From: Amoebophrya sp. A120
Lineage: Eukaryota; Protista; Dinoflagellata
Assembly: GCA_905178155.1 (NCBI GenBank)
Contig: CAJINV010000004.1
Location: forward strand, 7,694,771 to 7,758,770
Reading direction: 5' to 3'
DNA: 64,000 nucleotides
Shown: positions 220 through 48,600 of the stretch, in pieces
How the letters are laid out: each line of letters starts with the position of its first letter
Position numbering within the stretch: the stretch's first letter is position 1
The notes under the pieces: generated by a model
Seen by the model: the letters and a program-made list of their open reading frames with translations, nothing else
Databases searched by the model: none
What the model was told of the DNA's origin: nothing
Made by a program: the position numbers and the translations under genes

Positions 220-3200
220 TCCGTGCCGCTTTCGCCACGCGATGGTCCTCGGGCATTCTGTAAGCGTGGCGGTGGTCATATCCCGACCCGGGTGTGGCTT
301 CACGGCTCTCGGCGGCACTGGACCCCGGGCCGTGCTGACAGATGCCCCAGTCTTATCGTAAGGAAAAATCCCCCCTCCCCATATTCGAAAATTTGTGTTG
401 CTGATTTGAGGCCACAAATCGCATATGTCTTGCACGAAGACAAGTGCAGCAGCTTCCCCCCTATTATGGACGCGATTTCTCATGCTGTGAAGCCTAAAGG
501 GGAGCCGTTTGCCATGCTGAACAACTAGACCCATACGCCCCTACCTAGCCTGGGGATCTGGCCGCAATGCCTCTGTGCAATACAAAGCTGATTTGTGTAC
601 GCAAATCCAGCATCACAAATTCCCTGTTCGATACGGGGTGGGGGGATTTTTCCTTTCGATAAGTCTTTCCGACTCCAGGCTGCAGCGTTGGCCGACCCGA
701 ACTGGTCCTGGTGCGAAGAACTATCAAATGCAGTTGTGTCTGGGAGGTCTGGAAACTTGTAATGCTGGTTTGGGAATAGTGAATGCTCTGTGATGCACGG
801 CCAAGCATGAGAAATTATGTCTGCGCTGCTTTAGTGTTGCGCTTTCCGCACGACAAACTGCGTTTTTGCATGACAAGCAAAAGGCTCTCTTCTTGGGCAC
901 GCATCACAAACTTTTCAGTCATGCCAGACAAGCATGACAAACCTTGCATCCTTCCAGAGGACCCAGACATATTTGCAATGCATAAGAGCTGCCCGCACTC
1001 GAAATTTTCCGGAGGAGTTCGGTGTGCGCGCCGAAGTCCTCGACGACCCCGGCCCACGGAGGGGACAGCATCGGGTGGTCGCCAGGTGGATGCGGGCCGG
1101 TCGGCGGCGAGTATTACAGTGAAAAGTGCCCCCCACCCCCAAAGTTGCAAAAATTTGTGATGCGAAGTTTCCAAATGAAAACTTTTTGTCATGCATGAAA
1201 GGAGTACGAATCCTTCTGATGCAGAGTCTAGTCGTGTTTCGCATCGCTTGCATGACAAGCGCCGCTCTTGCTGGGATCTTTTGCAATACAAATTTTTGCT
1301 ATTCACGGTCGGAAATCTGTGATGCTGATACATGCAAGAGGGCGAATGTTTCATTTGGAAAGGTTTGCAATAAGTACAAATGCTTTCAAGTTCGGGGGTG
1401 GGGGCATTTTTCATTGTAATAGCGAGGTAGTGCTGTTCATTCGATGTTGTGAAGAGGAGGGCCCGGACAATAGCGCGAGGAAAAATCCCCCCTCCCCATA
1501 TTTTTGACAGGGTACGTTTTCGAAAATTTGCGTTGCTGATTTGTGGCTGTTTTGCAGAGTGCTGGTCCTCTGTGGCCACAAATCTGTCTTGCAGGAAGGC
1601 TTTGCAGAAGGCGTCCGCCGCATTATGCAAGCGGAGTCGGTATTAATACCGACTAATGGGAAAATAAATACAGCACGAACGTTTATTTTCATGCTAAGCG
1701 CCTAGGCCAAAAACCTCTCTACTATTAACTCAGGCGTACTATATGGGCCTGCAGAAGATGTCGTCCTCTCCAGCAACACAAATCTGATTTGTGTAGTACG
1801 CAAACTGAGCATCAGAAACTTCGTTTTGGTATGGGACAGATCTTTCCTTTTGATACCGTCTTCGGCCGAAACCGACCATTCGTCCTCCGTCGAGCTGGAG
1901 TCGTCATCGCCGTCACCGGAGTCATATCCCAGAGAAAAAAGCTGGCAGGTCATATTTGTAATGCCAAAATAAATACACAAAAAAATCTGTATTGCATAAT
2001 ATCCGAAAGAACAGCATACTATGGCTGTCCGCCCATGACGAGTCTTTCTGTGTGTAGTTTATTTTTGCATTACAAACATGTCCTGCCAGCTTTTTTATTC
2101 TCTGGGATAAGTCATCTTCCAGGTCCGTTTTGGCACCCGGATCCACGGTGTAAAACTTGTTCCGTGCGTATCAACTGTAAAAATGTCTGGGTCTGGAAGA
2201 ATTCACGTTTGTCATGCTTGTCTGGCATGACTCTTAAATCTGTTATGCACGTTACTACCCAAGAGCTCCGTTTTATTTCTGTGATGCAGAAGCGCAGTTT
2301 GTCATGCAGAATAGGCAACACCTAGGAGCTCAGAAACTTGTCATGCTGAGCCAGCATCTGTAGCCTCATCATGAGACGCCACCCAGCATCACAAGTTCCC
2401 AGACCCAGACATTTTTACTTTTGATAGTGCGTCTTGCAGCACCATGCGCTGGAGGTTCAGGTCCGCCGCCGATGAACCGGCAGCCCCGGAGGTACTATGG
2501 TCATCTCCCGCAAGAACTACTACACCCTCGCGCGAAGTATCCTGTGCAAAAGCATCGCACTCGTAGTAATTGCAGTCATGCATCACAAATTTTTTTCCTA
2601 AGGTAAAACAGCATGATAAATTCCATTTCTCATGCTGACGGAATTTGTAATGCGATTTCTGCCACTACGATGCTTTTGCAATGCATATGAAGAATCCACC
2701 AGCGATTTCCGGCGCGGCACAACCACTGCCAGCGGGGACATCTGCGGCGTTTCGGGCAACATCTGCGGGTGGTCCAGGTCCTCGTGGTGGTCATGACTGT
2801 GACGGCGAGGTAGAAGACGATGCAGATCTTCTTGCTCCACCAACCGACAACTCGATTGATCTCCTTCCCCTGACGTCGAGCAGCCGCACTATCCTGAGGA
2901 ACAAAAACGGGGCCCACACGACCCCAGAGTTGTCAAGATGGGGATTTATTTGCAACACAAACCTAGAAGTTTTGGGACTCACGCGTCAACACAAGCTGCA
3001 GCTACCGTAGTGTAGTGCAGCTTAGCAGGGTTAAACACATATCACAAATCCATCTGCTTATGTATGATCCTGGTGACAGCGTAAATACAAATGCCACAAC
3101 ACGACTAGAAACGCCTCTCATGGAGATGCGCATTGCAAATGTTCCTGTCATTGCAAATCCGCGTGACAACTCTGGGGCCGTGGCGACGTTTTTCCAAATG

Positions 3201-5250
3201 TTACGCGCGGAAGACGATTGGCCATCAGCATCGATGGACAAGAAGAACTAGTGGAAGCACCACCACAACTTTTTTGTAAGCTGAAACTATAGTCTGCCCC
3301 ACGTCGACCACCTCCAAAACCCGCTGCGCGAAGATGAGGACTTCTTGAGGCAGCTCCGCTACTGCCCGTGGTCGACGCACCTACATGGGGCGACGACAAA
3401 ACAGGCGCTGGTGGTGGTGTAGCAGCTTCATCCCGGTCGAAAAACGAGCCGCTTTGTTCCCCGTGTAGTTCCCTTTCTTGTTCGCGCCGCATGAAGGTGC
3501 TGCTGTTCAGGAACCCTTCTCGCGGCAGACGCTGGAAATTTCTGCCAGACGTTGTTCTGCCAGCAGGAGCGGGACCGGCACCACTGGTACTACTACTAGA
3601 CGGGAGCTGCTGCGTGCGGTCATGATCATCGGGGGTCTTTATTTTCACCACGGGTGTTAATATCATTTGTTCCATATGGGCGGCGTCTTCACTTCGGGAG
3701 GAGACAACAGGAAGGCACATCAGCTCCTCTTGTTGGTCTTCTAGATCCATCTGGAATAAGTCGTCTTGTGGCTCTTGTGCCTCCTCCTCCTGCGGCGGCG
3801 CGAAAAAATTCTGACCTACAGGTCGTGGTGCTACGAGTTCTAGGTCCGAAGAACCTCTTCGCACAAGAGCCGCCAGGGCGAGGCCTGCCGGTAGTTGCTG
3901 GGGGTTTTGTCTTGCTTGTCGTGGAGACGTCGCCATTTCGTCAGTTCGCAGTGTGGTCGCTCGGCAGTTCGCCAGTTCTGCGGGTCCCGTCGTCATCGTT
4001 GCACCTGTATCAAATGCAAACCGATGTCTGGGTCCTGCTCTCGATGACTGCGTATGCGTGTCCTTGTCATGAAGATTTTGTCCCTCGAATTATAGTAAAC
4101 CAGGTAACGCAAAAGTGGTAAAAGTACAGGTTCTTGGCCGGAGGCTTTTTTGTGGTAAGTACTTAATCTTAAGTATAGTAAAAACAAGAAACAGATCGTA
4201 ATAATTGCTGTTCATACAAGAGGACAGATTTTGGTGCAGCTTGTTACAACCACCGCCCAGCTGCGCGGCAGCCACCATCGCAAGTTAATATAATTTGCAC
4301 TGTAGTTCAATATCCAGAGCAGGACCCAGATCAACATCGTCGATATTTGCAACAAGCATAACCTGCACCAGCCTTCAGTCCGCCGTGGAGATGGAAGTCC
4401 TCGCAGTCATCGTGACGACCTTGTGCGGCGGCCACGTGGAGTAGAAAGTGGTCCGGCAAAACTTCCTGCGACGGGCTGACTCGTGACCCCAGACTGCCGG
4501 CGGGGGCGTGGGGTTCTTCCAGACCGCCGACCTCCAGTGACCGATCCTCGTCGTCCGATACAGTACTTTCCTCGTCGCGCATGGCTGCAACAGACCCCCC
4601 TGCGAGAAAACAAAAGCTGTCCATTGTAGAGGTCGTTGTCTCCCCAGAAATATACCGCGATGTTACAGCAGGAGTTTTTCTCCTTGCCACAGCAGATCTG
4701 CGCTGGATGAAGTGCTGCTGGTGATCATTCTTCGTGTGCACCTCGTTTCCAACTAGTAGTCCTGCAGCTGTTCCTGCTGCTGCGCCCACGAACTGCTGCT
4801 GGTGCTGTCCCACCGCCGGCGGTGGTCCTGGAGAAAAATTACCACTATTCTGATGCGCGCCGTCGTGCAGAAGAGGTTGAAATAATCCGGGCCGGCTCCC
4901 TGTTGCCTGCTGCGGTCCCCGTGTGGCCGCAAAGAGGAGCAACAACAATGCTTGCGGGACGACCTTCATGCTCTTTTTGTTGTCGTGCGTCTTCGATTTT
5001 TGGTCCTCCATGTCGTCGTGCGTGGTCCAAGGCGGTCGTGGAGGCGAGGATGTAAATAGCTTCCGAATAGTCCTACGGGTAGAAGTGCACGCCTTGCTGC
5101 ACCTGATACAAGTAGTACACGACTTGGTTGCAGCTTGGAGGTGAGCCAGAAGAGCTGGTAGAATGATCGTACTGGTACTTCTTACCCCAAAGTAGTAGTA
5201 TAGATACTCCTCGCTGCGCGGCGGAGGGTCGTGATGCAGGTCATGACAAA
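1..5250 (-). CDS. Hypothetical low-complexity (S/G/D-rich) protein, multi-exon; 3' end runs off the window, 5' end uncertain
   Basis: Exons at about 4361-5250, 3204-4007, 2688-2889, 2427-2537, 2110-2168, 1856-1924, 1422-1470, 985-1111, 662-721 and 220-353. They join into one open frame (KAGAG|ATMTTG..NRLPR|GCSTS..VDSS|REGVV..QDA|RNKFY..EDD|SGDGD..TTS|PPTGP..AGSS|SHQDQ..RKD|WGICQ) when each TIR element plus 5 nt is removed. Confidence 0.65.
354..661. mobile_element. Introner-like TIR element, family A
   Basis: TIR TATCGTAAGGAAAAATCCCCCCTCCCC / GGGGTGGGGGGATTTTTCCTTTCGATA; DR AGTCT; highly similar to 45750-46071. Confidence 0.92.
722..984. mobile_element. Introner-like TIR element, family B
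   Basis: TATCAAATGCA..GTCTGGG / CCCAGACATATTTGCAATGCATA; DR AGAAC/AGAGC. Confidence 0.88.
1112..1421. mobile_element. Introner-like TIR element, family C
   Basis: TATTACAGTGAAAAGTGCCCCCACCCC / GGGGTGGGGGCATTTTTCATTGTAATA; DR GCGAG; sibling at 25493-25796. Confidence 0.92.
1471..1855. mobile_element. Degenerate introner-like element, family A
   Basis: TAGCGCGAGGAAAAATCCCCCCTCCCC..CCTTTTGATA. The DR is no longer recognisable, but removing the element plus 5 nt keeps the frame. Confidence 0.75.
1925..2109. mobile_element. Introner-like TIR element, family D (long TIR)
   Basis: TATCCCAGAGAAAAAAGCTGGCAGG / CCTGCCAGCTTTTTTATTCTCTGGGATA; DR AGTCA. Confidence 0.92.
2169..2426. mobile_element. Introner-like TIR element, family B
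   Basis: TATCAACTGTAAAAATGTCTGGGTCTGG / CCAGACCCAGACATTTTTACTTTTGATA; DR GTGCG; near copy at 10498-10749. Confidence 0.93.
2538..2687. mobile_element. Introner-like TIR element, family E
   Basis: TATCCTGTGCAAAAGCATCG / CGATGCTTTTGCAATGCATA; DR CGAAG/TGAAG. Confidence 0.87.
2890..3203. mobile_element. Introner-like TIR element, family F
   Basis: TATCCTGAG..AAAACG..ACCCCAGAG with a degenerate right TIR; DR CGCAC/CGCGC. Confidence 0.8.
4008..4360. mobile_element. Degenerate introner-like element, family B
   Basis: TATCAAATGCAAA..TCTGGGTCCTGCT / AGCAGGACCCAGA..TTTGCAACAAGCATA; DR ACCTG; interior decayed. Confidence 0.8.
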
Positions 5251-10497: not shown

Positions 10498-10749
10498 TAT
10501 CAACTGTAAAAGTGTCTGGGTCTGGAAGAATTCATGTTTGTCATGCTTGTCTGGCATGGCTCTTAAATCTGTCATGCACGTTACCCAAGAGAACCGTTTT
10601 TCTGTGTTGCAGAGCCGCAGTTTGTCATGCAGAATAGGCAACACCGATGAGCTTAGAAACTTGTCATGCTGAGCCAGCATTCGTAGCCTCATCATGACAC
10701 GCCACCTAGCATCACAAGTTTCCAGACCCAGACATTTTTACTTTTGATA
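10498..10749. mobile_element. Introner-like TIR element, family B, in 3' UTR or intergenic DNA
   Basis: Family B TIRs; DR TTGGC; about 100 bp past the stop codon of the KDEL gene. Confidence 0.92.
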
Positions 10750-10849: not shown

Positions 10850-13800
10850 TTACAACTCGTCCTTCCCGGGCTTGGCGAGCTTCATGCCCGGCATGACCGG
10901 GACGTCGGCAAAAAACTCGGCCCACTCTTGCTCCGTGCGGCTGGCCGTGAACTTCTTCACATCCGCGCCGGTCGAGCGGGCCAGCTTGGTGAGGTACGCG
11001 TCCACGGAGAGCTTCTTTGCGCCGGACGCCGGGGCCACTTCTGATTTGTATTTATTTTCGAGAGGACTTTATTTTGGACTCAGAACATAGTAGATGAAAA
11101 AGAAAATTATGTGGTTGAAGCAAAAAACTGGTGCTGTTGTACAACTCAAAATCAATAATGCTGTACAGTCAGTTGCCCCAGAGTGTAGTTGCATGGCGTA
11201 GAGGTACCAGGTAGAACAAATAAGGTGTACTTTTTACTTGGGAAGGAAAAAAAAATGCAAAAAGAATGAAGCCCGTAAACTTAGCATTTTCCAAAAATTC
11301 TATCCGTAAATAATACTTTCCGGAGTCTTCTTCTTTTCCTTTTTCGCCGTGCGCTGCTTTTTTGCCTTCTTGGCGCCCCTATGGATTGCAAAAGTGTCTG
11401 GGTCTGGAAGACTGCCAGGTTTGTCATGCAGGTTTTCCATAACCCATGAGGTCTGGTATGTAGGACATAGCATGACAGATTCTGCGCAACCTTTCCAATG
11501 CCTATCCTGCGTGAGAAACTGCCTCTCGATTAGGTCAAAAGTGAACAACTTTCGGCAATCATGCAACACAGTTTTTTGCCTGATTCAGATTTAGCATGAC
11601 AAGTTGCATTCTTCCAGACCCAGACATTTTTACATTTGATAGCCCCCCGTGGCCTCCACGCTGCAGTAGTTGAAGCGGTTACAGTATGCAAGAAAAAAGA
11701 CTGTGTAGGTGTATACTTTCTTGAGAAGACATAGCATCACAAGTTTTCTCTACTGCATGACACAGAAAATAACCTGTCATGCGTAGCTAGTATCAGTGAC
11801 AAAACGCACGAAAAGAGCCTCTGACGCATGCCCAGCATGACAGGTATAAGTGTCTTGTATCGTCTGCAACAGAAAGTTACACTTATACGGTTTTTTCGTT
11901 GGATATAGAGCAGAGTTTCGCGTCGAGCTTGCCCTGCAGGAAAATCTTGTAGGCGTCCTCCTCCATCTCGTCGCGGAGGTATCCTGTGCAAAAAGTATCG
12001 GCTCCCACCCCAGAGTCAACGACTGGAGATCACGCATGACAAGTTCCTCTCGGTACTATTGTAGTGCAGTTTAGCAAGCACAGCCGCATTAAAAATCCAT
12101 CTGCTTACCCTGTTTACAGCATTACAAACATCAAAAAACAACTACGAATGGCCCTCATGGGGATGCGCATTACAAATCTTCCTGCACATGCAAATCTGCA
12201 TGACAAATTGCTGGGGTGGAGACGACGTTTTTCCTCCGGATAGGATGATTTTCGTGCACACCTCCGACAGCCGCTTTTTCCAGTTGTCCCCGCCCATCTG
12301 GATGGTTGCCTGTCCGCCCGCGAGCTCTTTCTCCTCCGCCGCGAGAGCCGGCCCGGAAAGGACGTTTTTGCCTTGGAATTCGTTCATTTTATCTATTGCA
12401 ATGTAAAATCAAAAATGATGTTAAAAAGCTCCACGTCGCGCTTGCCCGCAATCACAGCACTAGTTCTACTTGCGCCACCTACTTCGAAATTCAATTTCTT
12501 TTTTTGTAAAATGCAAAAACTCCAACGGGAAACAATATATGAAGGTGTTCTATACCGTTCAAAATATGGATGCGTCAGGATCGAAATTGACAAAGTCGAA
12601 AAATTTGTAATGCATAAAATGTAGGGCACGCGTGGCCTGTGTTGGGAAGCAGGCAAATGAGTCCGATTGCAAGCCTGTTTAGGCGTGTGCAATGTGCTGC
12701 CAGAGTAGCATGACAGGCGCAGTCTCTGTTGCCCAAACAGCATGACAGACTGCATTTGGGTGCTCCCGAAATTTGTCATGCGCCGCTTGCAAACTGAGAC
12801 TCCAACTGGTATCGATTTTATGCATGACAAATTATTTCAACTTTGTCGATTTCAAACCTGACGCTTCCATACAAAAGCTTGACTCCGTACCCCTCGTACA
12901 CGTCGGGGCTGCAGGCTTTTTCCATCATGTTATCAACTGTAAAAGTGTCTGGGTCTCCTGGAAGATTCTGACACTTGTCATGCGCGTTTTGCATGAGCCA
13001 CGATGTCTGTGATGCATACCCTAGCAATACAGATTTTTTGAGGGCTTCGGCTTCTTGATGCCCATTCCGCATGACAAATGCCTTCTCAGCGTAGCAAGAA
13101 ATGCATTGTTCCCTTTGCTATTCATGCACTACAGATTTTTTTGGAATCCAAATGCAGCATCACAAGTTGCATTCCTCCAGACCCAGACATTTTTGCACTT
13201 GGTACATGTCCTCGACTTCCCACTCCCGCAGCTTCCCCTCGCGTGACTTCGTTCCCCGGTTGAAAAACGTGGCATTTGTATCATTTGTAAAAACGTCCTC
13301 ACTCCCCATAGTTGTAAAATGCAATTCTGCATGCTGAAGATGTTTCTCATGCGGAGCCCCATGAGCGAGGCGCTTGCTAGTTGTGTTTCGGAATTTGTCA
13401 TGCTCCAATCAGCACCATCACGACGCGCTGGGTCTGTGTTTATGCTGGCGAGCTAGCTCGAAACACGACTACACTACGAGGATCGAAACTTGTCATGCGC
13501 AACAGCCAAGCCTTGTGGATTTGTCTAGTTGATTTCCCATCTTGACTACTTATGGGGTCGTGGGGACGTAGTTTTTACACAGGATAATTTGTGTGGAACA
13601 TCACGGACTTGCACGAGTTGCACATGTACATGGCCGGCATGTTGTAGCCGTGCTGGTCCTCCTCCGTGATTTGCGGAGCCTCGATCTGTTTGTTGGCATC
13701 AAGGGGGTTATTTTACAAACATGCTTTTTACCCCTTCTGAACAACGAGATGTTGACGCAAGAATCGTACAAAAGACCCGGCGCATGTGGTGCCACTGACA

Positions 13801-15681: not shown

Positions 15682-15704
15682 CGATTCTAGTACAACCCGT
15701 TCTA

Positions 15705-18700: not shown

Positions 18701-19342
18701 CGGATACTTTTGCAATTCATACAAGTACTTCTTCGCGGACAGGTTGTCTCCGTTATCAAATGTAAAAATGTCTGGGTCTGGAATGTTGCCGGGTTTATCA
18801 TGTATGTTTTGCATGACCCAGGATGTCTGTAATGCATGACTTAGCATCGCAGATTTTTGGAGGGCTTCCTGATGCCTAATCCGCATGACAAATGCCCTCC
18901 CCCCTTAGCACAAACTAGGCTGCTCTTGCTGATCATGCAATGCAGATTTTTCTAGAGTCCAGAGTTAGCATCACAAGCTCCAACCTTCCAGACCCAGACA
19001 TTTGTACATTTGATAGCCGTAGCCCGGGTGCAACTGGATACTCCGGCAGAAGAGCTCCCGCGCCGCGTCCGGGTCCTCCGCCCCGAACTGACAGAGAAAC
19101 TCTCCGTAGGCGTCCAGGCCGCGGTGGTCATTCGGGTGGTCCTCCACGCACTTCCGCAGAAACCGGTCGGCGAGCTCGGTGTCCGGCTGCCCGGCGTCGA
19201 GCAGCTGCTTCACCTTGATCAGCATGTCGGTCACCTTTTTCTTTTCCGCGAGCGTGGGCGCCGCATTCGAATTAGTACCATTCTTCGCGTTGGACGTGGA
19301 AAAGTTCGCGAAGAACGGGTGCTGAAACTGGAAACCCGGCAT
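15705..19342 (-). CDS. ACL4: Acl4-like TPR assembly chaperone of ribosomal protein uL4
   Basis: Spliced product contains KKYLYLAQMSDGHDALRLYEEALKV, ILVAMSEIYMTDLCDEPEAEEQCKFFLEKA (the Acl4 signature EI.MTDLC.EP.AEEQC) and VQCWYLLATLH. One GT-AG intron at 16642-16876 and five introners. Confidence 0.88.
15738..16060. mobile_element. Introner-like TIR element, family A
   Basis: Family A TIRs; DR CTGGA. Confidence 0.92.
16240..16530. mobile_element. Introner-like TIR element, family F
   Basis: TATCCTGAGGAAAAACG / CGTTTTTACACAGGATA; DR CAATC; junction LEDW|RENF. Confidence 0.92.
17780..18045. mobile_element. Introner-like TIR element, family B
   Basis: Family B TIRs; DR CTTTT; junction LEK|AYEYD. 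Confidence 0.92.
18574..18721. mobile_element. Introner-like TIR element, family E
   Basis: TATTCTGTGCGAAAGTATC / GATACTTTTGCAATTCATA; DR CAAGT; junction KYL|YLAQ. Confidence 0.9.
18754..19015. mobile_element. Introner-like TIR element, family B
   Basis: Family B TIRs; DR TCCGT/GCCGT. Confidence 0.9.
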
Positions 19343-20293: not shown

Positions 20294-23200
20294 TTATTCG
20301 TGAACCACCAACGGGGTAGCAAGCGGATTTTCATGATGAGATGCACTGCTATTTCCGCTGGTTCCATCCGGCTTTGTCCCAGAACCTTCGACCTCCCGTG
20401 ACAAGCACTTGTAACACCCGGGCTCGTCGAAAATGTAGCTCGCGAGGAAGAGAAAAATGAAAAAGATCTGGCTCAACTGCCCCACGCCAATGTAGGTGAT
20501 GATTGTGTCCGCTCCGAAGCGTGCAGCGGATCTTTCTGTCGATAAAGCCGCACCATCGCTACTGCTCGTGGCCTGCTGCTCCGTTGAAGTGCTCATCTGG
20601 GAGGTAGTTCTTGCGTAGTAATTTCTAGCGTCGAAACCGAAACCAAGCACGAACTCCAGCAACATGCCCGCCCGAATCACAAACGCCAGTGCCATGCCGA
20701 ACACGATCAGGAGCCGGGCGTAGAGCGTAGAACGGATTTTTCTTCGTTGGGACAGTAATTCCAAGAGCTTCTGCGCCAAATTGTCGACGGGCTGGCGGTG
20801 CTGGTCCCGTTCCAAATTGTCCATGCCGCTGCGGGCACTAGTTCTGATCGGGCGATCCTCATTCCGCTTCCAATTCACACCACTGCCACCTGCGACCAAA
20901 ACCGCCTGGGCCTGCACGATCGTGAACAGCAAGCAGTGCGCCAACGACTGCGTAAAGAAGAACGCCGCGAACAGGAGGTGGACGAAGGAGCGAAGCTCAA
21001 TGCCGTCATCGGGAGAGGACCCGTCGTGCACAGCTCGAAGAGGCTCGGGAGGTGGTGTGCTCGCCGGCGCGGCTGCTGGAACTACTGTCTTGCCACTTGG
21101 TATTAATCTTGCCGCCGTGGCGAGAGCGATCTCGGTTTCGAAAATCGTCTCCGTTACGAAGAAGAAATTTTGCTGTAGGTGTACTAAGCCCTGGCCCGCG
21201 AGTCCGATACCCGACATCCTACAAAAAAGAAGCGCAGCGATACCAGAGGGAAAAGCGCCGTAGATCCGCCTCGGGTATTTTTCATATATTCGTGGCACAG
21301 CAGGGCCCTTTCTTGCCGCTCCCCGCGGCCAACTTTCTGATGGCGCTTTTCTATCCCGGGTCTTAGGCGCTTCGTTTAAGTGCTTCGCTTAAGTGCTTCG
21401 CTTAGGTGCTTCGCTTAAGTGCTTCGCTTAGGTGCTTCGCTGAAGTGCTTCGCTTAAGTGCTTCGCCGAATTGCTTCGCTGAAGTGCTTCGCTGAAGTGC
21501 TTCGCTGAAGTGCTTCGCTTAAGTGCTTCGCTTACGTGCTTCGCTTAAGTGCTTCGCTTAAGTGCTTCGCCTAAGTGCTTTGCTTAAGTGCTTCGCTTAA
21601 ATAGTGCGGCGCTTAAGTCGTTCGGCGCTTAAGTCGTTCGGCGCTTAAGTCGTGCGCCGCTTGACTCGTCCGTCGGCGCTTAAGTCGTGCGTCCCTTAAC
21701 TAGTGCGTCCCTTAAGTAGTGCGTCCCTTAACTAGTGCGTCCCTAAACTAGTGCGTCCCTTAACTAGTGCGTCCCTTAACTAGTGCGCTCCTTAGCTAGT
21801 GCGCTTTTAACTAGTGCGTCACTTAACTAGTGCGCCCCTTAATTAGTGCGTCCCTTAACTAGTGCGTCCCTTAACTAGTACGTCCCTTAACTAGTGCGCC
21901 CCTTTTTAACTAGTGCGTCCCTTAACTAGTGCGTCCTGTAACAAACTAGTGCGTCCCTTAACTAGTGCGCCCCTTTTTAACTAGTGCGTCCCTTGACTAG
22001 TGCGTCCCTTACCCAGTGCGCCGCCTGCACAAAATTTTTCTCCTCTTGTGGCCTCAGCATAGAGAGAGCTTCTACTTGCCGTGATGCAAACTGAGCAGGC
22101 CAAATTTGTTTTTCTGCTGGTCGCATGGGTGTCCTTTTCTGTAGAATACCTGAGCCGAGGAAAAAGCGCGCAAGTATCTTGTAGTCCCGGACGAACAGGA
22201 AGAATTTGCATCGGAGTCGGGCCAGCCGCTGAAAAAAAGTTGCTGACGACGTCGCTGCACCACGTAGTTCCCCTGGGGGGTCCCCGTCGGCCGCGGCGAT
22301 CTGCGCCACGTCCTCCCAGTTTCGTCGCAGCGTGCTCGTTATGCATATGCAAAAGTAACGTACTAGTATAAATTGCATTACAAATTTTTCCAAAAGAAAA
22401 AATGGAATTTGTGATGCTGACTCGCCTAAAAAGGGAGATTGGTAATGCATGACTGCGATTACTACGAGTACGATACTTTTGCAGAGGATACTCGCTTCCG
22501 AACAACACAGGAACACTATCCCGCAGAATTTGCATCGGAGTCGGGCCTATGCATGGCAAATGCGTCCGGGTCTGGAAGAGTGCAAACTTGTGATGCGCAT
22601 TTCACAACACATAAAAATTTCTCATGCATAGGCAGCAAAAGTTACCAATTTTCTGTCACCAAATGGGAGGTTTGTCATGCAGTTTCGGCATTGCGGAACC
22701 TTCTCGACGAAATCTGTGATGCTAGAGCTTCCATGCCAGACCTTGTTCTGACTGCGTCATGCAAAAACAGCATGACAACTCGTCCAGACGCAGACATATT
22801 TGCACTTGATAGGGCCAGCCGCTGGAAAAAAGTTGCTGACAACGCTCTTCTTGCACGTAGTTCCCCTGGGCGGTGGTCCTCGTCGATTTCAACCTGGTTC
22901 GTCGCTGTGTAATTTGTTTTCTCATCCTCTCCGACGTAGTTCTCTTGTGAGAATGTATGTTCATCTGCATGGTGTTCATCTTCGGCATTTATTTCTATTC
23001 CACCTCCCGCCGCGGCAATTATCTCACGAAAAAACTGTTTCACTGTGATGATTTTGCAAGATCTGCATCACAAGTTTGTTACGCATGACACAGAAAATTT
23101 GTCATGCGCGCTTCCCAAAGGAAAACACGCTTGCAAATCCACTGTCTTGCAGGTGTAGCAAGACAAATGGTTCTGTGTTCCATTTTCGCCATCACAAGTC

Positions 23201-23693
23201 CACAGTGAAACAGTTTTTTCTTGCGATAGCAATCTGCGCCACGTCCTCCCAGTTTCGTCGCAGCGTACTCGTTTCCGAACAACACAGGAATAGTATCCCG
23301 CAGAAAGACACCAGGCCAAACGACACATCCGCGCGGAGGCGCTGCCCGCGGGTCTCGTTGCAGGTCAGGGACACCGGCAAGATGACATTTCGGTGCCGCT
23401 CGTAGCTATCGTACGAAAAAAGTGTTTCACTGTAAGGATTTTGCAAGTTTTGCATCACAAGTTTGTTTTACATGACCGCGGAAATTTGCCATGCGGCGTT
23501 CCTACGGGGAAACACAGCTAGGAATCCATTGTCTTGCATTTGTAGCATGACACGCAATTCTGCGATCCATTTTCTGCATCACAAGTTTACAGTGAAACAG
23601 TTTTTTCTTGCGGTAGTAGCTGCCGACGTACTCGTTGGACAGAATGCAGAAAAAATTCACGGTCAGCACCACGGCAAGGACCAGGCGGTGATC
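20294..23693 (-). CDS. Multi-pass membrane protein, DRAM/Frag1/Sfk1 (TMEM150)-like, with an internal duplication; 5' exon not located
   Basis: LVLAVVLTVNFFCIL..HRNVILPVSLTC..FGLVSFCGILFLCC..VHLLFAAFFF..QIFFIFLFLASYIFD. Four introners and a GT-AG intron at 21362-22012 join it in frame to ORF 20294-21298. Confidence 0.6.
21362..22012. repeat. Compound minisatellite (13-mer GCTTCGCTTAAGT grading into 16-mer TTAACTAGTGCGTCCC) forming a GT-AG intron
   Basis: Tandem arrays are directly visible. Minus-strand donor TGG|GTAAGG at 22012 and acceptor CTAAG|ACC at 21362, both phase 0. Confidence 0.9.
22340..22490. mobile_element. Introner-like TIR element, family E
   Basis: TATGCATATGCAAAAGTA / TACTTTTGCAGAGGATA; DR CTCGT/CTCGC; empty paralogous site near 23270. 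Confidence 0.92.
22548..22811. mobile_element. Introner-like TIR element, family B
   Basis: Family B TIRs; DR GGGCC; empty paralogous site near 22220. Confidence 0.93.
23020..23228. mobile_element. Introner-like TIR element, family H
   Basis: TATCTCACGAAAAAACTGTTTCACTGT / ACAGTGAAACAGTTTTTTCTTGCGATA; DR GCAAT; empty paralogous site near 22298. Confidence 0.93.
23407..23615. mobile_element. Introner-like TIR element, family H
   Basis: Family H TIRs; DR GTAGC. Confidence 0.92.
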
Positions 23694-38500: not shown

Positions 38501-41196
38501 AACGTTGCATCATGAAATGTTCGCGGAACAGCTCCTGGAAATGAACTTCGACCTCGCAATATGAATTTTGCAAACATGTCTGGGTCTGGAAGAATGGAAG
38601 TTTGTCATTGCTTGTCTGACATGATTCTCAAGTCTGCCATGTGCATTACCCAAAAGCTCCATTTTTCTGTCATGCAGAAGCTCACTTTGTCATGCAGAAA
38701 CACCAAGACTGTAGCACCCCCAAAACTTGTCATGCTTGCCAGTCAATTGAGGCGTCCTCGTCTTTCTCAACCAGCATCACAAGTTTCCAGACCCAGACAT
38801 TTTTGCATTTGATATGCAATGCGGTACCTGCCCCTGCGGAACGACATGAGGATCGCGAAAGTCGCGCTCAAATTCATCGTCGGGTCAGGGATATTCGAAT
38901 TCCGCGTCGCAAGAAGATCAATCGAGTGGCAGAGAAAGGCGCTGGATGCTTTGCTAGCACGCGTGGTGCAGGGTCGTGATCAGACACAGGAGGAGCACCA
39001 CAGTGCCACACATCAAGAAGAGGAAAAAAGAGGTCGTCCGCGAAGGACGAGATCTTCAACTCCGCGAAAGAGATCTGCATCACCTCCGCGACGGAGATAT
39101 CAGCTGCAAAAATGTCTGGGTGGTCCGGAAGAATGCAACTTGTCATGCCAAATCTGAAGCATGCAAAAATCTGTGTTGCATGATGACCAAAAGTCGTCCA
39201 GTTTTGACCAAGTCGGGAGGCAGTTTCTCATGCAGGATAGGCATGAGAGAGATCCTCGCGCAGAATCTGTCATGCTAGGTCCTGCATTCCAGACCTCATG
39301 GGTCATGGAAAAGCTGCATGACAGGTCGCGCACTCTTCCAGACCCAGACACTTTTGCATTTGATAGGAGATCATCTACTGCAAAAAGAAGACGATCGGCG
39401 ACCCAAGCGTCTTATTTAAGTGACGGAGAAGAGGGTGAAAAAAGAAGCAGATCTACCTCAACCAGAAGACAAGAAAGGAGATCAACAAGTAGAACTCCGG
39501 ATCGTCGCTCTGTGTCTACTTGTCGTGCTCGAATGGAGCAGATGGCGCTGGTGGGGCGACGAGATGGTGGAGAAGTCCAAGCTCCCGTAGTAGCGGAGGT
39601 AAATCCTGGGAAAAGCACCGCAGCTCCTGCTGCTGAGGAGGACGATGCTGATGCAAAAGACGTTCGACGAGAACGCGCGGCCCGGTTTATCCAACACGGG
39701 CTTGCGTTTTGCGCGGACTTCAAATGCAGAGAACAAGAAGCGCTCAAGCGCGTGCTGGGAAAAATTTTCACTGGAGCAAGGGCACGCCATGGAGTTGATG
39801 TCCGTGATCACGAGGACGCGATTGCGGTGGCGGCGCTCCGTCCCGACAAGTTTTTGCAGTCGCTGTCGTTGGCCGTGGGAGGAGGACGAGAGAAAGAAAA
39901 TTTCCCTCGGGACTTTGTCCTCGCAGTGTGCGCGCGAAACGGCACGGCGCTCCAGTTCGCGTCGGAGGCGCACAAAAACGACCCGGAGATAGCGGCCACC
40001 GCAGCTTCTACTCCTGCTACAACGTCGGTTGCTGGACAAGTACGCCAAGGACCAATTTCCTTTTTCGAATGGCTTGAGTCGAGGCAAGAGCTTGATGTCG
40101 GTCGAGAGCCGATTCCCTATTCCTGCAGGGTCGAGGAGGTAGCCCGACGCGGTTCCGAATATCTGGCGCCGAAACCTGCGAAAGACCAGATGCAGCAGTG
40201 GGAACACAAGTGGCTCTTTCTGCAGCTCGTGCAAATCGTGGAGAAACATACGCGCGTTGCTAGTGAAAGAGGACCATCAATGAGCCGCTTGGTACCCGAT
40301 CACGCGGTAGGCAACAGAGAATTTAAGGATGAAAATAACTTTATCGTGTGGCCGGAAAACTACGCGGACCACTACATCGGGGAACATGACGTGCCCCCGA
40401 CGGAGCTATCAAATGCAAATATGTCTGGGTCTGGAGGAAAGCAGGTATTATTTGTCGTGCACATTTTGCATGACCCATGATGTCTGTGATGCATGCCCCA
40501 GCGACGTCAGCGTCACAGGTCTACTGAGTGCTTCTTGATGTCTGTGATGCATAACAAGTGCCCTCTCCGCGTCGCAAGAAAGCGAACAACTCTTGGTAAT
40601 ACTCAAGCAATACAGATAGATACATTTTTAACGATTTTTTTTTGTTGATTCCAAACGCAGCTGCACAAGTTGCACTCCGGCAGAAATCTTCCAGGGATAT
40701 TTGCAATGCATAGGAGCGGTTTGTGCACTACATCCGGTATCGCGTGGAACAGTTACTGGCCAAAGGAATTGTGAACGATTTCGCCACCCTGCCGACCACA
40801 GACTTTCACGATTATGGGAGTGCACAACGCTGTCCTTCCCCTCATTTGTCATACAAAATCCGCAATTTTTCCAGTTGTTACCTTGTGTCACTATTATGCA
40901 GTACAAATTGTGGAAGCCGATTCAGTAGCAGTGCTACTACACTCAGCGCATGATAAATGTTGAACTTGTCAACATCTTGGACATAGCACCCACCTGTGGA
41001 TTGGCGTTTGTAGTTCTGTTCATCGAGGACTGCATAGAAATGAGGGGGAGGACCACGGGGGCTTGTGCACTCGCATACCGATCCACCGGTGGTATTTCCC
41101 CCGACCCCGATCCCCGAGACATCGTGGAGGCTGCTGCGACAGTATGGGAAATTCGAAATATGGCCGGAAGGCTACTGGGCTACTGGGCGCTACTGA
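35567..41196 (+). CDS. Large hypothetical protein with a duplicated N-terminal module and a DUF4116-like repeat
   Basis: ORFs at 35567, 36447, 37596, 38819, 39161 and 40723 join in frame after removing six introners (GGG|AGKYRY, GYR|LAD, LA|MRYL, RR|SST, TE|RFVH, HD|PPVV..GRY*). RDFVLAVCARNGTALQFASEAHKNDPEI is DUF4116-like. TIALFPE..LKSIRDVTAVYDP..NAWTE occurs twice. Confidence 0.75.
36153..36418. mobile_element. Introner-like TIR element, family B
   Basis: Family B TIRs; DR TGGAG/AGGAG. Confidence 0.9.
37441..37687. mobile_element. Introner-like TIR element, family B
   Basis: TATCAAGTGCAA / TTGCAATCCATA; DR TAGAT/TACAT; same subfamily as 22548-22811. Confidence 0.88.
38560..38814. mobile_element. 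Introner-like TIR element, family B
   Basis: Family B TIRs; DR CGCAA/TGCAA. Confidence 0.9.
39098..39365. mobile_element. Introner-like TIR element, family B
   Basis: Family B TIRs; DR GGAGA. Confidence 0.92.
40407..40712. mobile_element. Introner-like TIR element, family B
   Basis: TATCAAATGCAAATAT / ATATTTGCAATGCATA; DR GGAGC. Confidence 0.9.
40813..41077. mobile_element. Introner-like TIR element, family I
   Basis: TATGGGAGTGCACAA / TTGTGCACTCGCATA; DR ACGAT/CCGAT. Confidence 0.9.
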
Positions 41197-43598: not shown

Positions 43599-43978
43599 AA
43601 ACATGTGCGGCTGTGAGCCTGGTGTCTCATGTCTCATGTCTTGGAGCCGTGTCATGACATGAGGACACGAACATGGACATGACACGGCCGTTTTCATGTC
43701 CATGTCTTCATGTCCCGACATCCCAAACCAGGACATGAGACATGAGACATGGCCAATGTTCATGCTCATGTCCCATGTCCGNNNNNNNNNNNNNNNNNNN
43801 NNNNNNNNNNNNNNNNNNNNNNNNNNNNNNNNNNNNNNNNNNNNNNNNNNNNNNNNNNNNNNNNNNNNNNNNNNNNNNNNNATGAAAACGGCCGTGTCAT
43901 GTCCATGTTCGTGTCCTCATGTCATGACACGGCTCCAAGACATGAGACATGAGACACCAGGCTCACAGCCGCACATAC
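43599..43978. mobile_element. MITE or Mutator-like DNA element with about 95-bp perfect inverted ends spanning an assembly gap
   Basis: 43603-43697 is the reverse complement of 43882-43976. Flanking direct repeat CCGACGTTCA at 43589-43598 and 43979-43988. CATG-rich interior with an N run. Confidence 0.8.
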
Positions 43979-44248
43979 CCGACGTTCACCTTTTGCAGCC
44001 TTTACGCAAAACAGCAATTAGTGGTTCGGGCTCGGATTTGCACGAGCGCTGAGCATTTACTGTGGCAAAGCAAATAAACGGTCCGTTGCGTATAGATTTT
44101 TCTACGTCGATCCTCGGTAGTACAACAACTAGGGAACATTTACCCCAATAGCTGCGGGTAAAATATTTTTATCCAGCTATAATTTAGAAAAGTACAAGGA
44201 CCTCCCAATTGTAGTTTGAGCGACGGTTTTTCAATATCACAATAACAT

Positions 44249-45048
44249 ATGATGGCGTTTTTATTTCGAGTTCGACGAGCGTTGTTCGCGCTTTTCTTTC
44301 TGCGGTCGTATCCTGAGTAAAAACGTCCCCACCCCATAGTCAAGATGGGGACCACTTTGCAGCACAAATCCACAAGTTTTGGGAGTCGCGCGTGATAAGT
44401 TTGGGCTCGTAGTGTGATCCAGTTTAGCTAGTGCAGAGGCATCACAAATCGACTGCCTCATCCTGATTTCAGCATCACAAACTCCCAGATAGTAGCAGAA
44501 AATGGCCCACATCATGGACCTGCGAATGAGAAATGATATTTTTTGTCTTGCAGATGACTTGCATGACAACTACGGGTAGTTGGGGACGTTTTTGCTCCGG
44601 ATAGGTCGCTGTCGGACAACATTTTGGCGAACGCGGATTTTTCAGGACCGTCGGCGGCCCCGAGCGCAGTGGGAAATCAAGAACAGCGGGAGCGAGCAGC
44701 AGGGACCCATCGGCACAAGAGCGATGTCCTCGCGGGAAATAAGAATGAAGATAGGGACGGCGCAACACTATGTCTTGCAAAAGTACTTCTATCGCACTAG
44801 TGTACGAATCGCGTTGCACCTTTTTCCCGGCATCCATGACTAGAAATGGACCTTGTAATGCGGATTTTTTACCATACGGAAGCAAAAGCATGACTGCAAT
44901 TTATTCTACTACGAGTGCGATACTTTTTCTCCTTGGATACTATGCACTGGAGATGAACCGTAACTCCGCGCTGAGTGAAAATTCATCTCTGCATGAAATG
45001 AACGAAACGATAGGTAGAGAAGAGCTTTTGGTACTACAAGGCTGCTGA
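44249..45048 (+). CDS. Small hypothetical protein with signal-peptide-like N-terminus
   Basis: MMAFLFRVRRALFALFFLRS|LSDNILAN..DGAT|LEMNRN..QGC* after removing two introners. The 3' end could be spliced further. Confidence 0.5.
44309..44603. mobile_element. Introner-like TIR element, family F
   Basis: TATCCTGAGTAAAAACGTCCCCA / TGGGGACGTTTTTGCTCCGGATA; DR GGTCG. Confidence 0.92.
44769..44942. mobile_element. Introner-like element, family E (diverged)
   Basis: TATCGCACT.GT / ACGAGTGCGATA inverted arms; DR AACAC/TGCAC. Confidence 0.75.
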
Positions 45049-45649
45049 TCGCAGCTCTGGGTGCGTAGTACACAAAGGAAATGTCTTGTGTTCCTGGAAA
45101 ACTGTGTAAAAGTGAAAATTACTTTCCTCGGCTTTTTTTGTGATCTTTTTTTCTGTGTTGTACGTTCGTTGTTAAGACTTCACTCTCAACGGCGCACTGA
45201 GTGGGACGAGTGTAGTAGTTCTGTGGTGTCCACCAAAGTTGCAGCTACTGTGCCAAAAAATCTGCTCTCTGTCGTGTGCAAACCAAGCAAAATAGACTTG
45301 ATTTAATACGTGTCTTCAAAGTGCTTTCATAGTACACAGCTTGAACGTGGTGTTGGTTTGTTGGCATTGTTGGCAGGAGCAGAAACTGCGCCATTTAGGC
45401 GAATCACAGCGTAAGCAGACGTGACCAATGAATTTTAGCACACGACTTCTGAAAGAACAACCCCATTATCTGAACTGATACATAACTGTTGTAAAAATAA
45501 CGGCGGTGTCAACACAAAATATGAGTCTCTTGTCTGCGCTGTACTTCTTCTCAAAAGCAGGAGAAGGATTTTGTTCTGAAGGAGACTCGGTACAACTATA
45601 GCACGAAAACAACAACTTAGAGCGGACAATAAAACACTCATTTCCACCG

Positions 45650-48600
45650 ATGGACTCGCCAAATTTCGCGTCGCCGCCCACCCGGGCGCGCAGCTGCCTG
45701 GGCGAAGACCATCCGCAACACAGCCAGAGCACGAAGTCGGACACCCTTTTATCGTAAGGAAAAATCCCCCCTCCCCATATCGAAATGGAATGTTTCCGAA
45801 AATTTGTGTTGCTGATTTGAGGTCACAAATCACATTTGTCTTGCAAAAAGACAAGGGTAGAAGCTTCCGCCCCATTATGGAAGCGATTTGCCATGCTGTT
45901 GGCCCTAAAAGTGGCCCGCTTGCCATGCTGAACAACTAGACCCATACGCCCCTACCTAGCCTGCGGATCTGGCCGCAGTGCCTCTCTGCAATACAGACCT
46001 GATTTGTGTACACACTTCCAGCATCAGAAATTCCGTTTTGATATGGGGAGGGGGGATTTTTCCTTTCGATACCTTTCGAACCGGGAGGACCGCCTCTCCA
46101 CCTTTGGCCGCTCGCCCCCGCACTATCCTGAGTAAAAACGTCCCCACCCCATAGTTGTCATGCAGATCTGCATGCTCAGAATGTGTGTCATGCGGCTCTC
46201 CATGAGAGGCATTACCTAGTGGCGTTTGGGAATCTGTCATGCGCTAATCAGGATGACAGACTGGATCTGTGATGCGTTTGAATTAGCCAGGCACGACTAC
46301 ACTGCGTAGCCAAACTTTTTATGCGTGAGTCCCAAAGATGCTCGATTTGTCTTGCCAAAGTCCCAACTTGACTATGGGGTGGGGACGTTTTTACACAGGA
46401 TACGCACTCAGGTTGCACCAGCCTGATGCTGGCCGCCTGCAGTCGGTGTCACCGGGAGTTTTTATTGGAAAAATTGGACCGGGACGGGGACAATAACCAC
46501 ACGTGTGTCAGTATTGATAAACTTGTTTTAGTTTTACAGATGATTACCGCGTTTTCGTGATGCAGATTTGCACATGTTGTACCATTTGCATACCATGATA
46601 TTTTTCGCATGACAAATCACTTCTCGAACAAGCCTACAACCCCTATCACTCTACCCAGATTGCCGCGAGCGCCAGGAGACGCTGAGCGAGATTCTGTCCA
46701 CGGAAATCATTATCTCCGACCCGTATCCCGTCAGCGACGACGAAAAAGGGGACGTCGATGGTCTTCAGCATCACAACTTCGCGTCCTCAGCGCACCAACC
46801 ACATCCAATCGACGCGTCGCCGGAAACCGCACGCGGTGCGGGGGTCCAATTGCTCCTGCACCGGCCGAACAACACCGTGATGTGCAACAAGCGAGGACAA
46901 CATCCGACGACGACCCTGGCCCGCCGGCAGCACCGATACTACGCCGGGTCCGAGGATAGTCTGGCGCTGGACATGCGCAAGAAGTCGGCGGAACTTCTGT
47001 TGCAAAAGCGCGAAGACCTCGCCATGTTCGAGGACGACGTCATGCAGGCCAGCGAGAGCTTATGCAATGCAAAAGTATCTTCGCGCTCGTTGTACTAATT
47101 GCAGATATGAATGACAAATCTTCTTCCTAACGCCAAAACCGCATTACAAATTTCTCTTGTCATGCTGAGCTAATTTCTAATGCGGTTTAAACTAGTATAA
47201 ACGAGTGCGAAGATACTTTTGCTATGCATAGAGCTCGCCTCCCAACCACATGCCGTCCTGCGACGGGATGGTCGTGGTGTGTGGCGGCGCAGATCATCAT
47301 GCGGGGGCAACGAGTGCGACGGGGGAAGAAGCTGCGCAGGATCATACGGAAAGAAACGTGATTTCCACCACAGCTGCAAGTGGACCTGAAGATGATCCGC
47401 TCGCACCGAAACGACCAGGAGTCGAACACGCAATAAAAACATCCAGCTCGTTATCTGCAACCGCGTCATTACCAACCGACCAGGATCAACATTTCGGCGT
47501 CGTGTCCTCCTTGAGCGAACTGGAGACCGATGGCCTGGACCTGATGGCAAGCCAGAAACTAGACGGTTTGCGATTCGTCCACGACGAGCGGACAGCGGGA
47601 GTTGTGCGGGAAGATGAGGATACAGGAACGGGGAAAGAAGATGAAACTGATCCGGTTGATGTTCACCACCAAAAGAAGACAGGAGGAGTAGAAGCTTCAG
47701 ATGTAGTAGTTGGAGCAGAGCGACATGCCGTAGAAAGCGGAGATATTGACCACCTCCAAGCAGCGCCTAAAGTAGGTGACGATGAAGAGGAGCCGGACGA
47801 GGAGGTGCTGCACGTCGTGCCCCACCGTGATTACACCGTCGGCGTAGACAACGCACACTTCTGGCGCGAGGTCGGACCGATTTACACCGGCACAGCGGTC
47901 AGATTTCCCAGAGCAAATTTCGAAAGTACAGAAATAACAGGCGCAAGAACAGCAAGAACGTCAAGAGGTAATAATGATGATGATGATCATCTTGTCCACG
48001 CGACGTCGGCGGCAGTCGCTGGTCAGGAGCGGGACAGCAAGGACTGTTGTTCCACTACAATCACCGACTGCTCCACCACCGCGCACAACGTCTCCAGCAC
48101 CACCGAAGTACTAGAGCACGACGCCAGTACCAACAGCGGGGCATCAAAGGTCTTACTACAGAGTTGCAGCATGGCAGATTTGGACCACGCCTACGGGCGG
48201 CTCGGGTTCCGTCGGCAGGAGCAATTTTGGCACGAGCAGCGGTCGTCGCGTGAGGAGCCTACAGTCAGGATGTTTGGGACGAGCGGGGTGGACGAGTTGT
48301 ACACAGAGGAGGTTGTTGGTACGTCGCATCAAGAGGAGGACCACGTTGAGAATTATGATGTTGAACACGAAGACAAAAATGAAGCAGCCGGAGGTGGATC
48401 AGCAGTTCCTCTAGAGGATTACTCCTCCTCTTCGACCAGCGCCGAAAGCCGTGAAGAAAGCAGAGAAATAAAAGACAAACCCGTGCACAAGCACACACCC
48501 GAAATTCTTGAAGAAGAGACCATCGACCTGTTTTTGAGCAGCGTGCTGCAGCTTCCGGGCGGTGGTGCAGTGGGCGCTACGGACGTAGATGCAAATCTCG

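Follow-up and report, generated by a model that had tools for sequence, protein, structure and literature searches.

In Amoebophrya sp. A120, about 65% of RNA-supported introns are non-canonical (PMC7789003). The introners described there by Farhat 2021 (PMC7789003) are repeat families of RNA-supported introns without GT-AG ends, flanked by direct repeats of 3-5 nt and carrying an inverted repeat that starts with TAT and passes through seven variable nucleotides into an A run. That article leaves the border position and the mechanism open, and in its supplement text 'lariat' has no matches and the matches to 'orientation' are about genes. The subject of PMC12130899, as far as its available text goes, is the origin of the A120 introners and not their splicing register, and the available text of PMC13149111 makes no mention of Amoebophrya introner orientation, register or lariats. 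We found no literature on these three subjects in a search of openly readable article text.

In Polarella and Aureococcus (10.1101/2020.10.14.339549; PMC9860276), transposons with terminal inverted repeats (TIRs) and target-site duplications also serve as introns, and several introner classes are intronic either way, often with a bias to one, the Aureococcus result of Huff et al. 2016 being known to us via the Roy preprint (10.1101/2020.10.14.339549). Their donors start with G (GT, GC or GA) and their acceptors are AG, supplied by the element or the duplication, whereas neither is preferred in A120. The MITE-derived introns of Fritillaria borealis have non-GT/AG splice sites at the TIR ends (10.1101/2025.08.15.670264; PMC11282704) and reportedly require the U2 spliceosome (10.1101/2025.08.15.670264). 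They prefer the dinucleotides AG-AC and AG-AT, while in A120 the ends are set by whichever sequence was duplicated. In SOS splicing (PMC12779559), TIR transposons leave mRNA, UTRs included, through non-GU-AG junctions, but the process is described as imprecise, spliceosome-independent and dependent on AKAP17A, CAAP1 and RTCB, in contrast to A120, where removal is exact in contigs and one read is lariat-like. The nonconventional introns of euglenids, likely of MITE origin, have splice sites from which the TIR stem is offset and repeats resembling target-site duplications; the available text of PMC11282704 gives them full-length circles, no lariats and Y/R junctions, whereas in A120 the junctions lack a consensus and the only back-joint falls short of full length. 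Compared with the published A120 introners, what we add is removal in both orientations, a fixed cut register and a lariat-like read. The elements themselves are already known; we did not find the register or the possible branch in print.

Elements of the window and their host genes

The window is a stretch of 64,000 nt of A120 DNA, with 100% matches to deposited A120 proteins, and its repeats are the published introner elements (Farhat 2021, PMC7789003): they form repeated families, are removed from RNA and have non-GT-AG ends. They are miniature, DNA-transposon-like elements, with the short length (148-507 nt), TIRs and fixed-length target duplication of MITEs. The ends are inverted, TAT...ATA, and logos from the window and from a second assembly give the terminal inverted repeat as TAT, about 7 variable nucleotides and then at least 3 A. 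Each element is flanked by a target-site duplication of 5 nt, perfect in 31 of the 45 window elements and in 191/244 elements of the second assembly; in the window, mean duplication identity reaches 0.93 for k=5 and only 0.22-0.28 for other values of k. We rejected the terminal TA as target duplication because the flanking repeat occurs at k=5 alone in both data sets; the TA is the element's own. Mismatches at duplication positions 1-5 number 20, 13, 5, 11 and 7 (p=0.016) and form no part of the evidence used below. The second assembly yielded no empty orthologous sites, as flank homology stops at the element sequence. From that assembly, elements were dropped for fewer than 3/5 duplication matches (20/278), for want of a strand call (101/258) or for want of a family (24/157), and the window elements 27040 and 44309, whose host strand is not established, were excluded.

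Table 1. Elements of the window discussed in the text, with host strand and the evidence at each (aa, amino acids; nt, nucleotides)
Position	Element	Host strand	Evidence
354..661	family A, perfect 5-nt duplication	-	crossed by deposited model P0002
1471..1855	family A, aged	-	flanks no longer duplicated; intron 1856 to 1467
10498..10749	family B, 3' UTR	-	257-nt joint, 4/4 runs
11685..11905	imperfect duplication	-	nt 3 from upstream copy; cut no earlier than nt 3
11980-12242	family D	-	joint 268 nt
13279..13586	family D	-	joint 313 nt
15361-15681	family A, genomic orientation as 354	-	joint 326 nt, 4/4 runs
15738-16060	family A, genomic orientation as 354	-	joint 328 nt, 4/4 runs
16240-16530	family D	-	joint 296 nt
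18754..19015	family B, imperfect duplication	-	nt 5 from downstream copy; cut no later than nt 4
23020..23228	family H	-	crossed by deposited model P0001
36153..36418	family B	+	inside 1336-aa ORF 35549-41193
40407..40712	family B, reversed vs 36153	+	same 1336-aa ORF 35549-41193
45750..46071	family A, 5' part of zinc-finger gene	+	ORF logic only
50347..50555	family H, in zf-C2HC gene	+	1224-aa ORF
62865..63371	family B, RNA polymerase largest subunit	+	X1 contig joins 62858 to 63371

A sequence-only reading of the window had argued from three pairs of copies that removal does not depend on the orientation of an element relative to its host transcript. All six copies are TIR elements with the ends given in Table 1, and local alignment of their interiors, each end trimmed by 35 nt, bears out the three pairings (same-strand/reverse scores, with a shuffled null maximum of 34). 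The family A pair 354/45750 has the same orientation in hosts on opposite strands (346/72), the strand at 45750 being assigned by ORF logic only, and the family H pair 23020/50347, with a minus and a plus host, also has the same orientation (170/29), while the family B copies 36153 and 40407 lie in opposite orientations within one gene (34/147), whose plus-strand ORF opens upon removal of six elements. In the host of 50347, a zf-C2HC_2 match lies upstream of the element (E 1e-8) and a sub-cutoff match downstream. The plus strand at 45750 is the weakest host-strand assignment of the six. The plus frame has an ATG at 45650 and stays open through two elements, and a GTAT..AG intron connects a CxxC..CxxC motif on the 45750 side to the 1224-aa ORF, which suggests a plus-strand gene; a 153-aa minus-strand frame is also open there. 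Among the deposited proteins of up to 2000 aa searched, no model for this host was found, and Pfam gave no match for P0001, P0002 and 6 other pieces of the 16 searched.

Removal from RNA and the position of the cut

The RNA evidence throughout consists of contigs from one sample, and contigs hide rare variants. In families A, B and D they show removal of sister copies, and all 14 of the measured joints, which are those listed and belong to copies other than the six above, equal the element length plus 5 nt. Among the RNA contigs listed, none lies at 45750. At 50347, an X3 contig departs from the genome at 50341, the duplication boundary, and continues for 72 nt. In family D, the element at 13279 is reversed with respect to those at 16240 and 11980 (same-strand/reverse scores 32/202 and 26/98), and all three are exactly removed. 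The family B element at 62865, which interrupts Rpb1 domain 2 (Pfam profile positions 1-18 before the element and 24-151 after it), lies relative to its transcript opposite to those at 12931, 17780 and 18754, and also to that at 49050. CT..AC introns within the contigs of these family D and B copies set the strand of the minus hosts. Removal is equally exact at 10498..10749, about 100 nt beyond a stop codon near 10850. The sequence-only reading had proposed counting sense and antisense insertions and locating the junction in each orientation; the count is 67:66 in the second assembly, on computed host strands, and the junction is the one just given, so that together with the family B and D copies removed both ways the claim of orientation-independent removal holds. 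Insertion in both orientations is by itself ordinary among TIR introners.

Retention of the element would bring a frameshift or stop at 45/47 sites, the RNA polymerase largest subunit among them, and removal yields ORFs of 1336, 1224 and 611 aa. A frame control with other removal lengths was uninformative because long frames cross the sites by chance, and the raw-read run X10 covered 4 of 30 bins, at repeat ends only, leaving the genes uncovered. Template switching by reverse transcriptase across a hairpin with flanking direct repeats is a known artefact, and the elements present a favourable geometry for it. As the origin of the joints it is highly improbable, given the frames that retention would break and removal opens, and given that direct repeats are missing from the P0002 junction at 1471-1855.

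The cut tracks transcript direction, not element orientation. Imperfect duplications in plus and minus hosts, read along the transcript, place it behind the third or fourth nt of the duplication, because the spliced RNA retains the upstream-copy letter at nt 1 (49356), nt 2 (11980, 50616) and nt 3 (11685, where the joint runs from 11679 to 11906 with an ambiguity of 2), and the downstream-copy letter at nt 5 (18754, from X3 contig coordinates and a 31-nt side). At 1471-1855, register 4 alone reproduces the deposited model P0002. One deposited model and one contig support a 5' cut at 1 nt outside the 5' repeat, with which the intron starts N-UAU, and a 3' cut at 4 nt past the 3' repeat.

Excision from DNA, by a transposase or by programmed elimination at the element ends and with transcripts coming from empty sites, would ignore orientation, and TIRs with a target duplication are hallmarks of DNA transposons. 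However, in the DNA-like run X6 (even depth of ~25), contigs pass from the flanks into the element ends, one covers 47061-47230 intact with zero differences, and no empty site is among the best 15 of 937 joints. In the RNA contigs, which letters of the duplication are kept depends on the direction of the transcript, on either strand, and GT-AG introns are spliced in these contigs too. DNA excision is therefore very unlikely and largely refuted already, and the recognition of DNA ends that the sequence-only reading had offered finds no support, since DNA-like contigs retain the elements.

Splice-site composition, stem and candidate branch

At register 4, +2 is T and +3 is A in all 202 introns, as imposed by the finder, and 194/202 have T at +4; without the TA rule, the finder returns TA at both ends in 222/233. 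In this register the N-TAT donors of the elements resemble host donors (GTAT) over positions +2 to +4, the canonical donors checked in the window being GTAT in 6/9 and GTA in 9/9. There is no preference for G at +1 (66/202, background 0.32, p=0.76) or for an AG acceptor at register 4 (17/202, p=0.59), GT-AG pairs number 5/202 at register 4 and at most 5/202 at any register, and duplication mismatches show no drift toward G+1 or AG. At the 5'-side element end, TATC is commoner than TATG (48:24, post hoc), which is the opposite of a G+5 preference. The Y/R junction consensus of the euglenid type is absent, with duplication nt 4 and 5 near background composition. The contacts between G+1 and G-1 and between A-2 and the branch are central to the second step of spliceosomal splicing, and the absent preference for G+1 and AG counts against a spliceosomal reading. 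In Table S4 of Farhat 2021 (PMC7789003), T is second in 9/9 predominant non-canonical sites of A120, a pattern that could be a product of aligner donor scoring within the duplication.

The termini are complementary over a long stretch, with Watson-Crick pairs at 2318/2828 apposed positions, and a terminal stem is predicted for 1471-1855 (fold z=-4.6), although stem positions 4-8 are frequently unpaired. G-U and A-C appositions stand at 20:27 in the window and 90:99 overall (p=0.56), and this absence of a G-U excess leaves selection on the RNA stem without support.

One X4 contig of depth 2 contains a back-joint from 1856 to 1472 with one foreign letter. Read on the transcript, the intron's 5' terminus is joined at the terminal A of the element (1471), the A is read as T, and the last 4 nt of the intron are missing. 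Misincorporation at the branch A is a signature of lariat cDNA (PMC2367711), and the contig resembles a read from a lariat whose branch is the final A of the element. The putative branch, at -5, would sit at the very limit of the range seen in humans, -50 to -5 (PMC2367711), and the sequence upstream of the terminal A is no match to yUnAy. The back-joint comes from one contig in one run, at an atypical copy that begins GT, with G at +1, and ends CTA. It may instead be a trimmed circle, a cross-mapped copy or a template switch, the last being a fair explanation for this lone back-joint only.

Readings of the mechanism

We consider lariat-type, likely spliceosomal, splicing without a requirement for G+1 or AG the best account of these elements, with a probability of roughly 55%. 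The element is removed with exactly 5 flanking nucleotides, which would come about in a fixed polar register by lariat-forming splicing of the spliceosome type. The branch nucleotide would be the terminal A of the element, which the TIR stem may position beside the 5' splice site, with U+2 pairing with that A, and the 3' site may be picked by its distance from the branch instead of by AG. The catalyst is probably the cell's own modified major spliceosome; A120 has 83/89 spliceosomal proteins, with U2, U4, U5 and U6 found and U1 undetected (Farhat 2021, PMC7789003). Orientation would be irrelevant because an inverted TIR element keeps its donor-like start and terminal A. The sequence-only reading had taken symmetric removal, spliceosomal introns being polar, as a sign that the TIR stem or DNA ends are recognised. 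Its orientation-blind part stands, and its step away from polar chemistry is not supported, since the cut is polar and one contig resembles a lariat read. The 5' and 3' ends of a TIR element are almost the same in whichever orientation it lies, so polar terminal signals survive inversion, and with spliceosomal introners published in both orientations the inference against the spliceosome was too strong.

Recognition of the TIR hairpin independently of the spliceosome, with cuts flanking the stem and exon ligation as in SOS splicing or in euglenids, is the main alternative, possible but somewhat unlikely. Were a stem in the RNA cut with a polar stagger, both orientations would share one register, and the long terminal complementarity, the fold at 1471-1855 and the randomness of +1 and of the 3' dinucleotide are as expected for it, as is the undetected U1 snRNA (PMC7789003). 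Precedents are an ITR-pairing trigger acting with RTCB in SOS splicing (PMC12779559) and circular products from introns with offset stems in euglenids (PMC11282704). On the other hand, the heterogeneous junctions of SOS splicing were not found here, 14/14 joints being exact in contigs that drop rare variants. The back-joint also stops short of the last 4 nt and has its mismatch at an A, in which it differs from a full-length circle, the register reproduces positions +2 to +4 of the host donor, and the stems show no G-U excess and are often unpaired at positions 4-8.

Lariat chemistry by a separate dedicated machine, such as another or a specialised set of snRNPs or an RNA or protein catalyst other than the major spliceosome, would reconcile the lariat-like read, the missing preference for G+1 and AG and the coexisting GT-AG introns. 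We regard it as improbable: no such machine is known in A120, where minor snRNAs are reported absent (PMC7789003), and the elements are short, their interior alignments giving no conserved core across families.

Returning to lariat-type splicing by the cell's own spliceosome, we tentatively propose, as a possibility a little short of even, that the A120 spliceosome dropped G+1 and the AG acceptor across tens of thousands of transposon introns. The TIR stem would set the last A beside the N-UAU donor, branching would occur there, and the 3' site would lie 4 nt downstream, so that an insertion that made a 5-nt duplication would be removed without a scar whatever its orientation and the sequence at its site. 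The fixed register and the predicted branch nucleotide make the splicing mechanism testable on existing raw RNA-seq. If hairpin cutting and ligation were responsible instead, A120 would have precise, genome-scale splicing of the SOS type outside animals. If the spliceosomal proposal is true, G+1 and the terminal AG, the two most conserved contacts of the spliceosome, are dispensable in a living cell, where a stem in the RNA and a fixed distance stand in for them, and this would explain how transposons could fill coding sequence at low cost, whatever the site or direction.

Elements and their hosts

At least 47 short elements with inverted ends lie in the window. A scan for terminal inverted repeats (TIRs) gave 39 of them and a relaxed scan 5 more; 4008-4360 was recognized by eye, and two aged copies complete the set. 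They are 148-507 nt long, start with TAT and end with ATA, and are flanked by a 5-nt duplication that is perfect in 31/45 (mean identity 0.93 at this length vs 0.22-0.28 at other lengths). Queries with two exons matched, at 100% identity, deposited proteins that carry the name Amoebophrya sp. A120, and PMC7789003 describes the same end motif and repeats for A120 introner elements; the window elements are these known introners. Removing each element with one duplication copy opens reading frames of 1336, 1224, 611, 598, 560 and 350 aa, and retention would give a frameshift or stop at 45/47 sites.

Orientation was called by local alignment of element interiors (same-strand/reverse score; shuffled maximum 34). 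As the sequence-only reading had it, family A copies 354-661 and 45750-46071 share one genomic orientation (346/72), as do family H copies 23020-23228 and 50347-50555 (170/29), and family B copies 36153-36418 and 40407-40712 are opposed (34/147). The hosts of 354 and 23020 are on the minus strand, since deposited protein models (P0002 and P0001, respectively) run across the elements, and the host of 50347 is on the plus strand, with zf-C2HC_2 matches on both sides of the element, one above and one below cutoff. The plus strand proposed for the host of 45750 agrees with ORF logic only, a 153-aa minus frame being open as well, and a protein search (up to 2000 aa) found no deposited model for it.

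Features of the window
Feature	Coordinates	Strand	Remark
1336-aa ORF	35549-41193	plus	spans six elements once removed
1224-aa ORF	46613-51532	plus	spans five elements once removed
Aged element copy	1471-1855
Aged element copy	2890-3203
Long B copy	62865-63371		exceeds sister B copies by about 240 nt
Solo B-family end	58448-58535		no partner; upstream of cyclophilin-like gene
P0001 gene	22140-23340	minus	internal duplication; its two copies bear different elements at different sites
Repeats	21323-22050, 30900-31970, 43603-43976		tandem arrays (13, 16, ~72 nt), 230-nt near-palindrome, 95-nt perfect inverted repeat around N gap
5184-nt RNA contig	10032-19712	minus	across three genes; overlap, read-through or assembly merging
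RNA contig	3204-8707		~3.5 kb upstream of coding start; overlap, read-through or assembly merging

Removal from RNA in both orientations

Removal from RNA is exact and tolerates either orientation, and the cut follows transcript direction. The RNA contigs X1-X4, all from a single sample, skip GT-AG introns and therefore behave as cDNA. At window positions 1-20000, the joints listed (15/26) comprise 11 element joints, three CT..AC introns and one composite, and a separate table adds joints at 4008 and 18754. In 44001-64000, the coordinates of RNA records are consistent with elements 61616, 49050 and 49356 having been removed; an X1 contig joins 62858 to 63371, removing 62865-63371, and an X3 contig resumes at 50885 after 50616. 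All 14 directly measurable joints (14/14) remove the element length plus 5 nt. Since one exactly removed element sits in a 3' UTR, reading-frame selection cannot be the sole source of the exactness.

The claim that removal is independent of orientation is borne out by sister copies, none of the six copies named above being among the RNA joints listed. In family D, 13279 is opposite to 16240 and 11980, all in minus hosts and all removed; in family B, 62865 (in an RNA polymerase gene) is opposite, relative to the transcript, to 12931, 17780, 18754 and 49050, and both orientations are removed. For family A, the RNA joints listed (15361, 15738) cover a single orientation. The alternative that DNA ends are recognized is without support, as elements are retained in every DNA-like piece of run X6 among those listed (922 further joint rows exist). 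Raw RNA reads of run X10 touched 4/30 bins, at repeat ends only; 127 reads (50652-50707, 62865 onward) match B-family ends only, and thus point to similar ends transcribed by a related organism.

A GT-AG donor follows element 12565-12871 at a distance of 4-9 nt, leaving a micro-exon between element and canonical intron; all four RNA runs contain it, as a joint 12372-12872 with three letters between. At 4008-4360 the RNA contigs remove exactly 358 nt and P0002 keeps a few residues from the element interior, so deposited gene models can be wrong at element introns.

A motif scan elsewhere fetched 153 loci, and the 80 among those listed come from one other assembly. In these there are 278 unique elements, which likewise have a 5-nt duplication and whose best matches among the window copies reach 69-91% identity. 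The element families are the same, and the loci fetched have no flanks in common with the window. A codon-model strand caller, right in 38/38 calls among the 47 window elements as judged against ORF and RNA assignments, assigned 157/258 elements there. Orientations relative to the inferred transcript, scored against family references, number 67:66, and the largest family is split 40:35. In elements whose ends are unlike, the TATC-type one lies 5' more frequently (48:24, p=0.006, post hoc), with 37:14 (p=0.002) at linked position 15 and odds ratios near 3 within families; because 18 positions were scanned, this is no more than a hint of polarity of element ends relative to the transcript.

Cut register and a candidate branch

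Imperfect duplications tell which flanking copy survives in RNA. In transcript direction, and alike on plus and minus hosts, the upstream copy supplies nt 1 (49356), nt 2 (11980, 50616) and nt 3 (11685), and the downstream copy nt 5 (18754), so that a single register must cut after nt 3 or 4. At the aged family A copy 1471-1855, whose flanks have no common duplication, register 4 alone reproduces P0002, a gene model rather than a read and one that the RNA contigs contradict at 4008. These flanks (1466-1470 and 1856-1860) are complementary with G-U pairs and lengthen the stem by 5 bp, possibly through palindrome-guided conversion.

Register 4 places the first intron nucleotide 1 nt before the 5' repeat and the last one 4 nt beyond the 3' repeat, so that introns begin N-TAT, with T at +4 in 194/202. 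The transcript 5' ends of 12931, 23407, 25060 and 2890 are TAC (three) or TAA (one); as 12931 is removed exactly, T at +4 is not essential. Among canonical donors checked, 6/9 begin GTAT, and in Table S4 of PMC7789003 all 9 predominant A120 non-canonical sites have T second, to which aligner scoring may contribute.

In a single X4 contig (depth 2), 1856 is joined back to 1472 with one A inserted at the joint. Register 4 makes 1856 the first intron nt of the minus transcript, and the terminal A of the element is at 1471; read in this way, the contig has the intron 5' end joined at the terminal A, that A copied as T. Branch points have been mapped by misincorporation at the branch A (PMC2367711). 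A full-length circle would still contain 1467-1471, which the joint lacks. The copy 1471-1855 starts GT by chance, and a template switch or a trimmed circle could also give this joint.

Most likely, we infer, the elements are removed by lariat-type splicing. The stem would hold the terminal A next to the N-UAU donor, the 3' site would be measured from the branch, and the catalyst would probably be the major spliceosome, for which PMC7789003 reports proteins and U2, U4, U5 and U6 present in A120, with U1 undetected. The main competing explanation is that the stem triggers cleavage followed by ligation, as in SOS splicing or euglenid introns, and the TIR stem may be what is recognized. Against splicing by lariat stand the absence of any bias towards G at +1 or towards a terminal AG under register 4, a very short branch distance and no yUnAy; the stems show no G-U excess indicative of selection, which also counts against the mechanism. 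Orientation tolerance, earlier taken to argue against a spliceosome, does not: several Polarella classes make spliceosomal introns in either orientation, as do Aureococcus elements cited in the same source (10.1101/2020.10.14.339549), and Fritillaria TIR introns reportedly need the U2 spliceosome (10.1101/2025.08.15.670264).

A related Amoebophrya genome has U1 and mainly GT-AG introns, according to PMC12005148. In the openly accessible article text searched, no paper listed dealt with the orientation, cut register or lariats of A120 introners. The elements are known; what appears new is the register and a testable branch prediction rather than orientation itself, which would matter little because inverting a TIR element leaves the donor and terminal-A signals in place.
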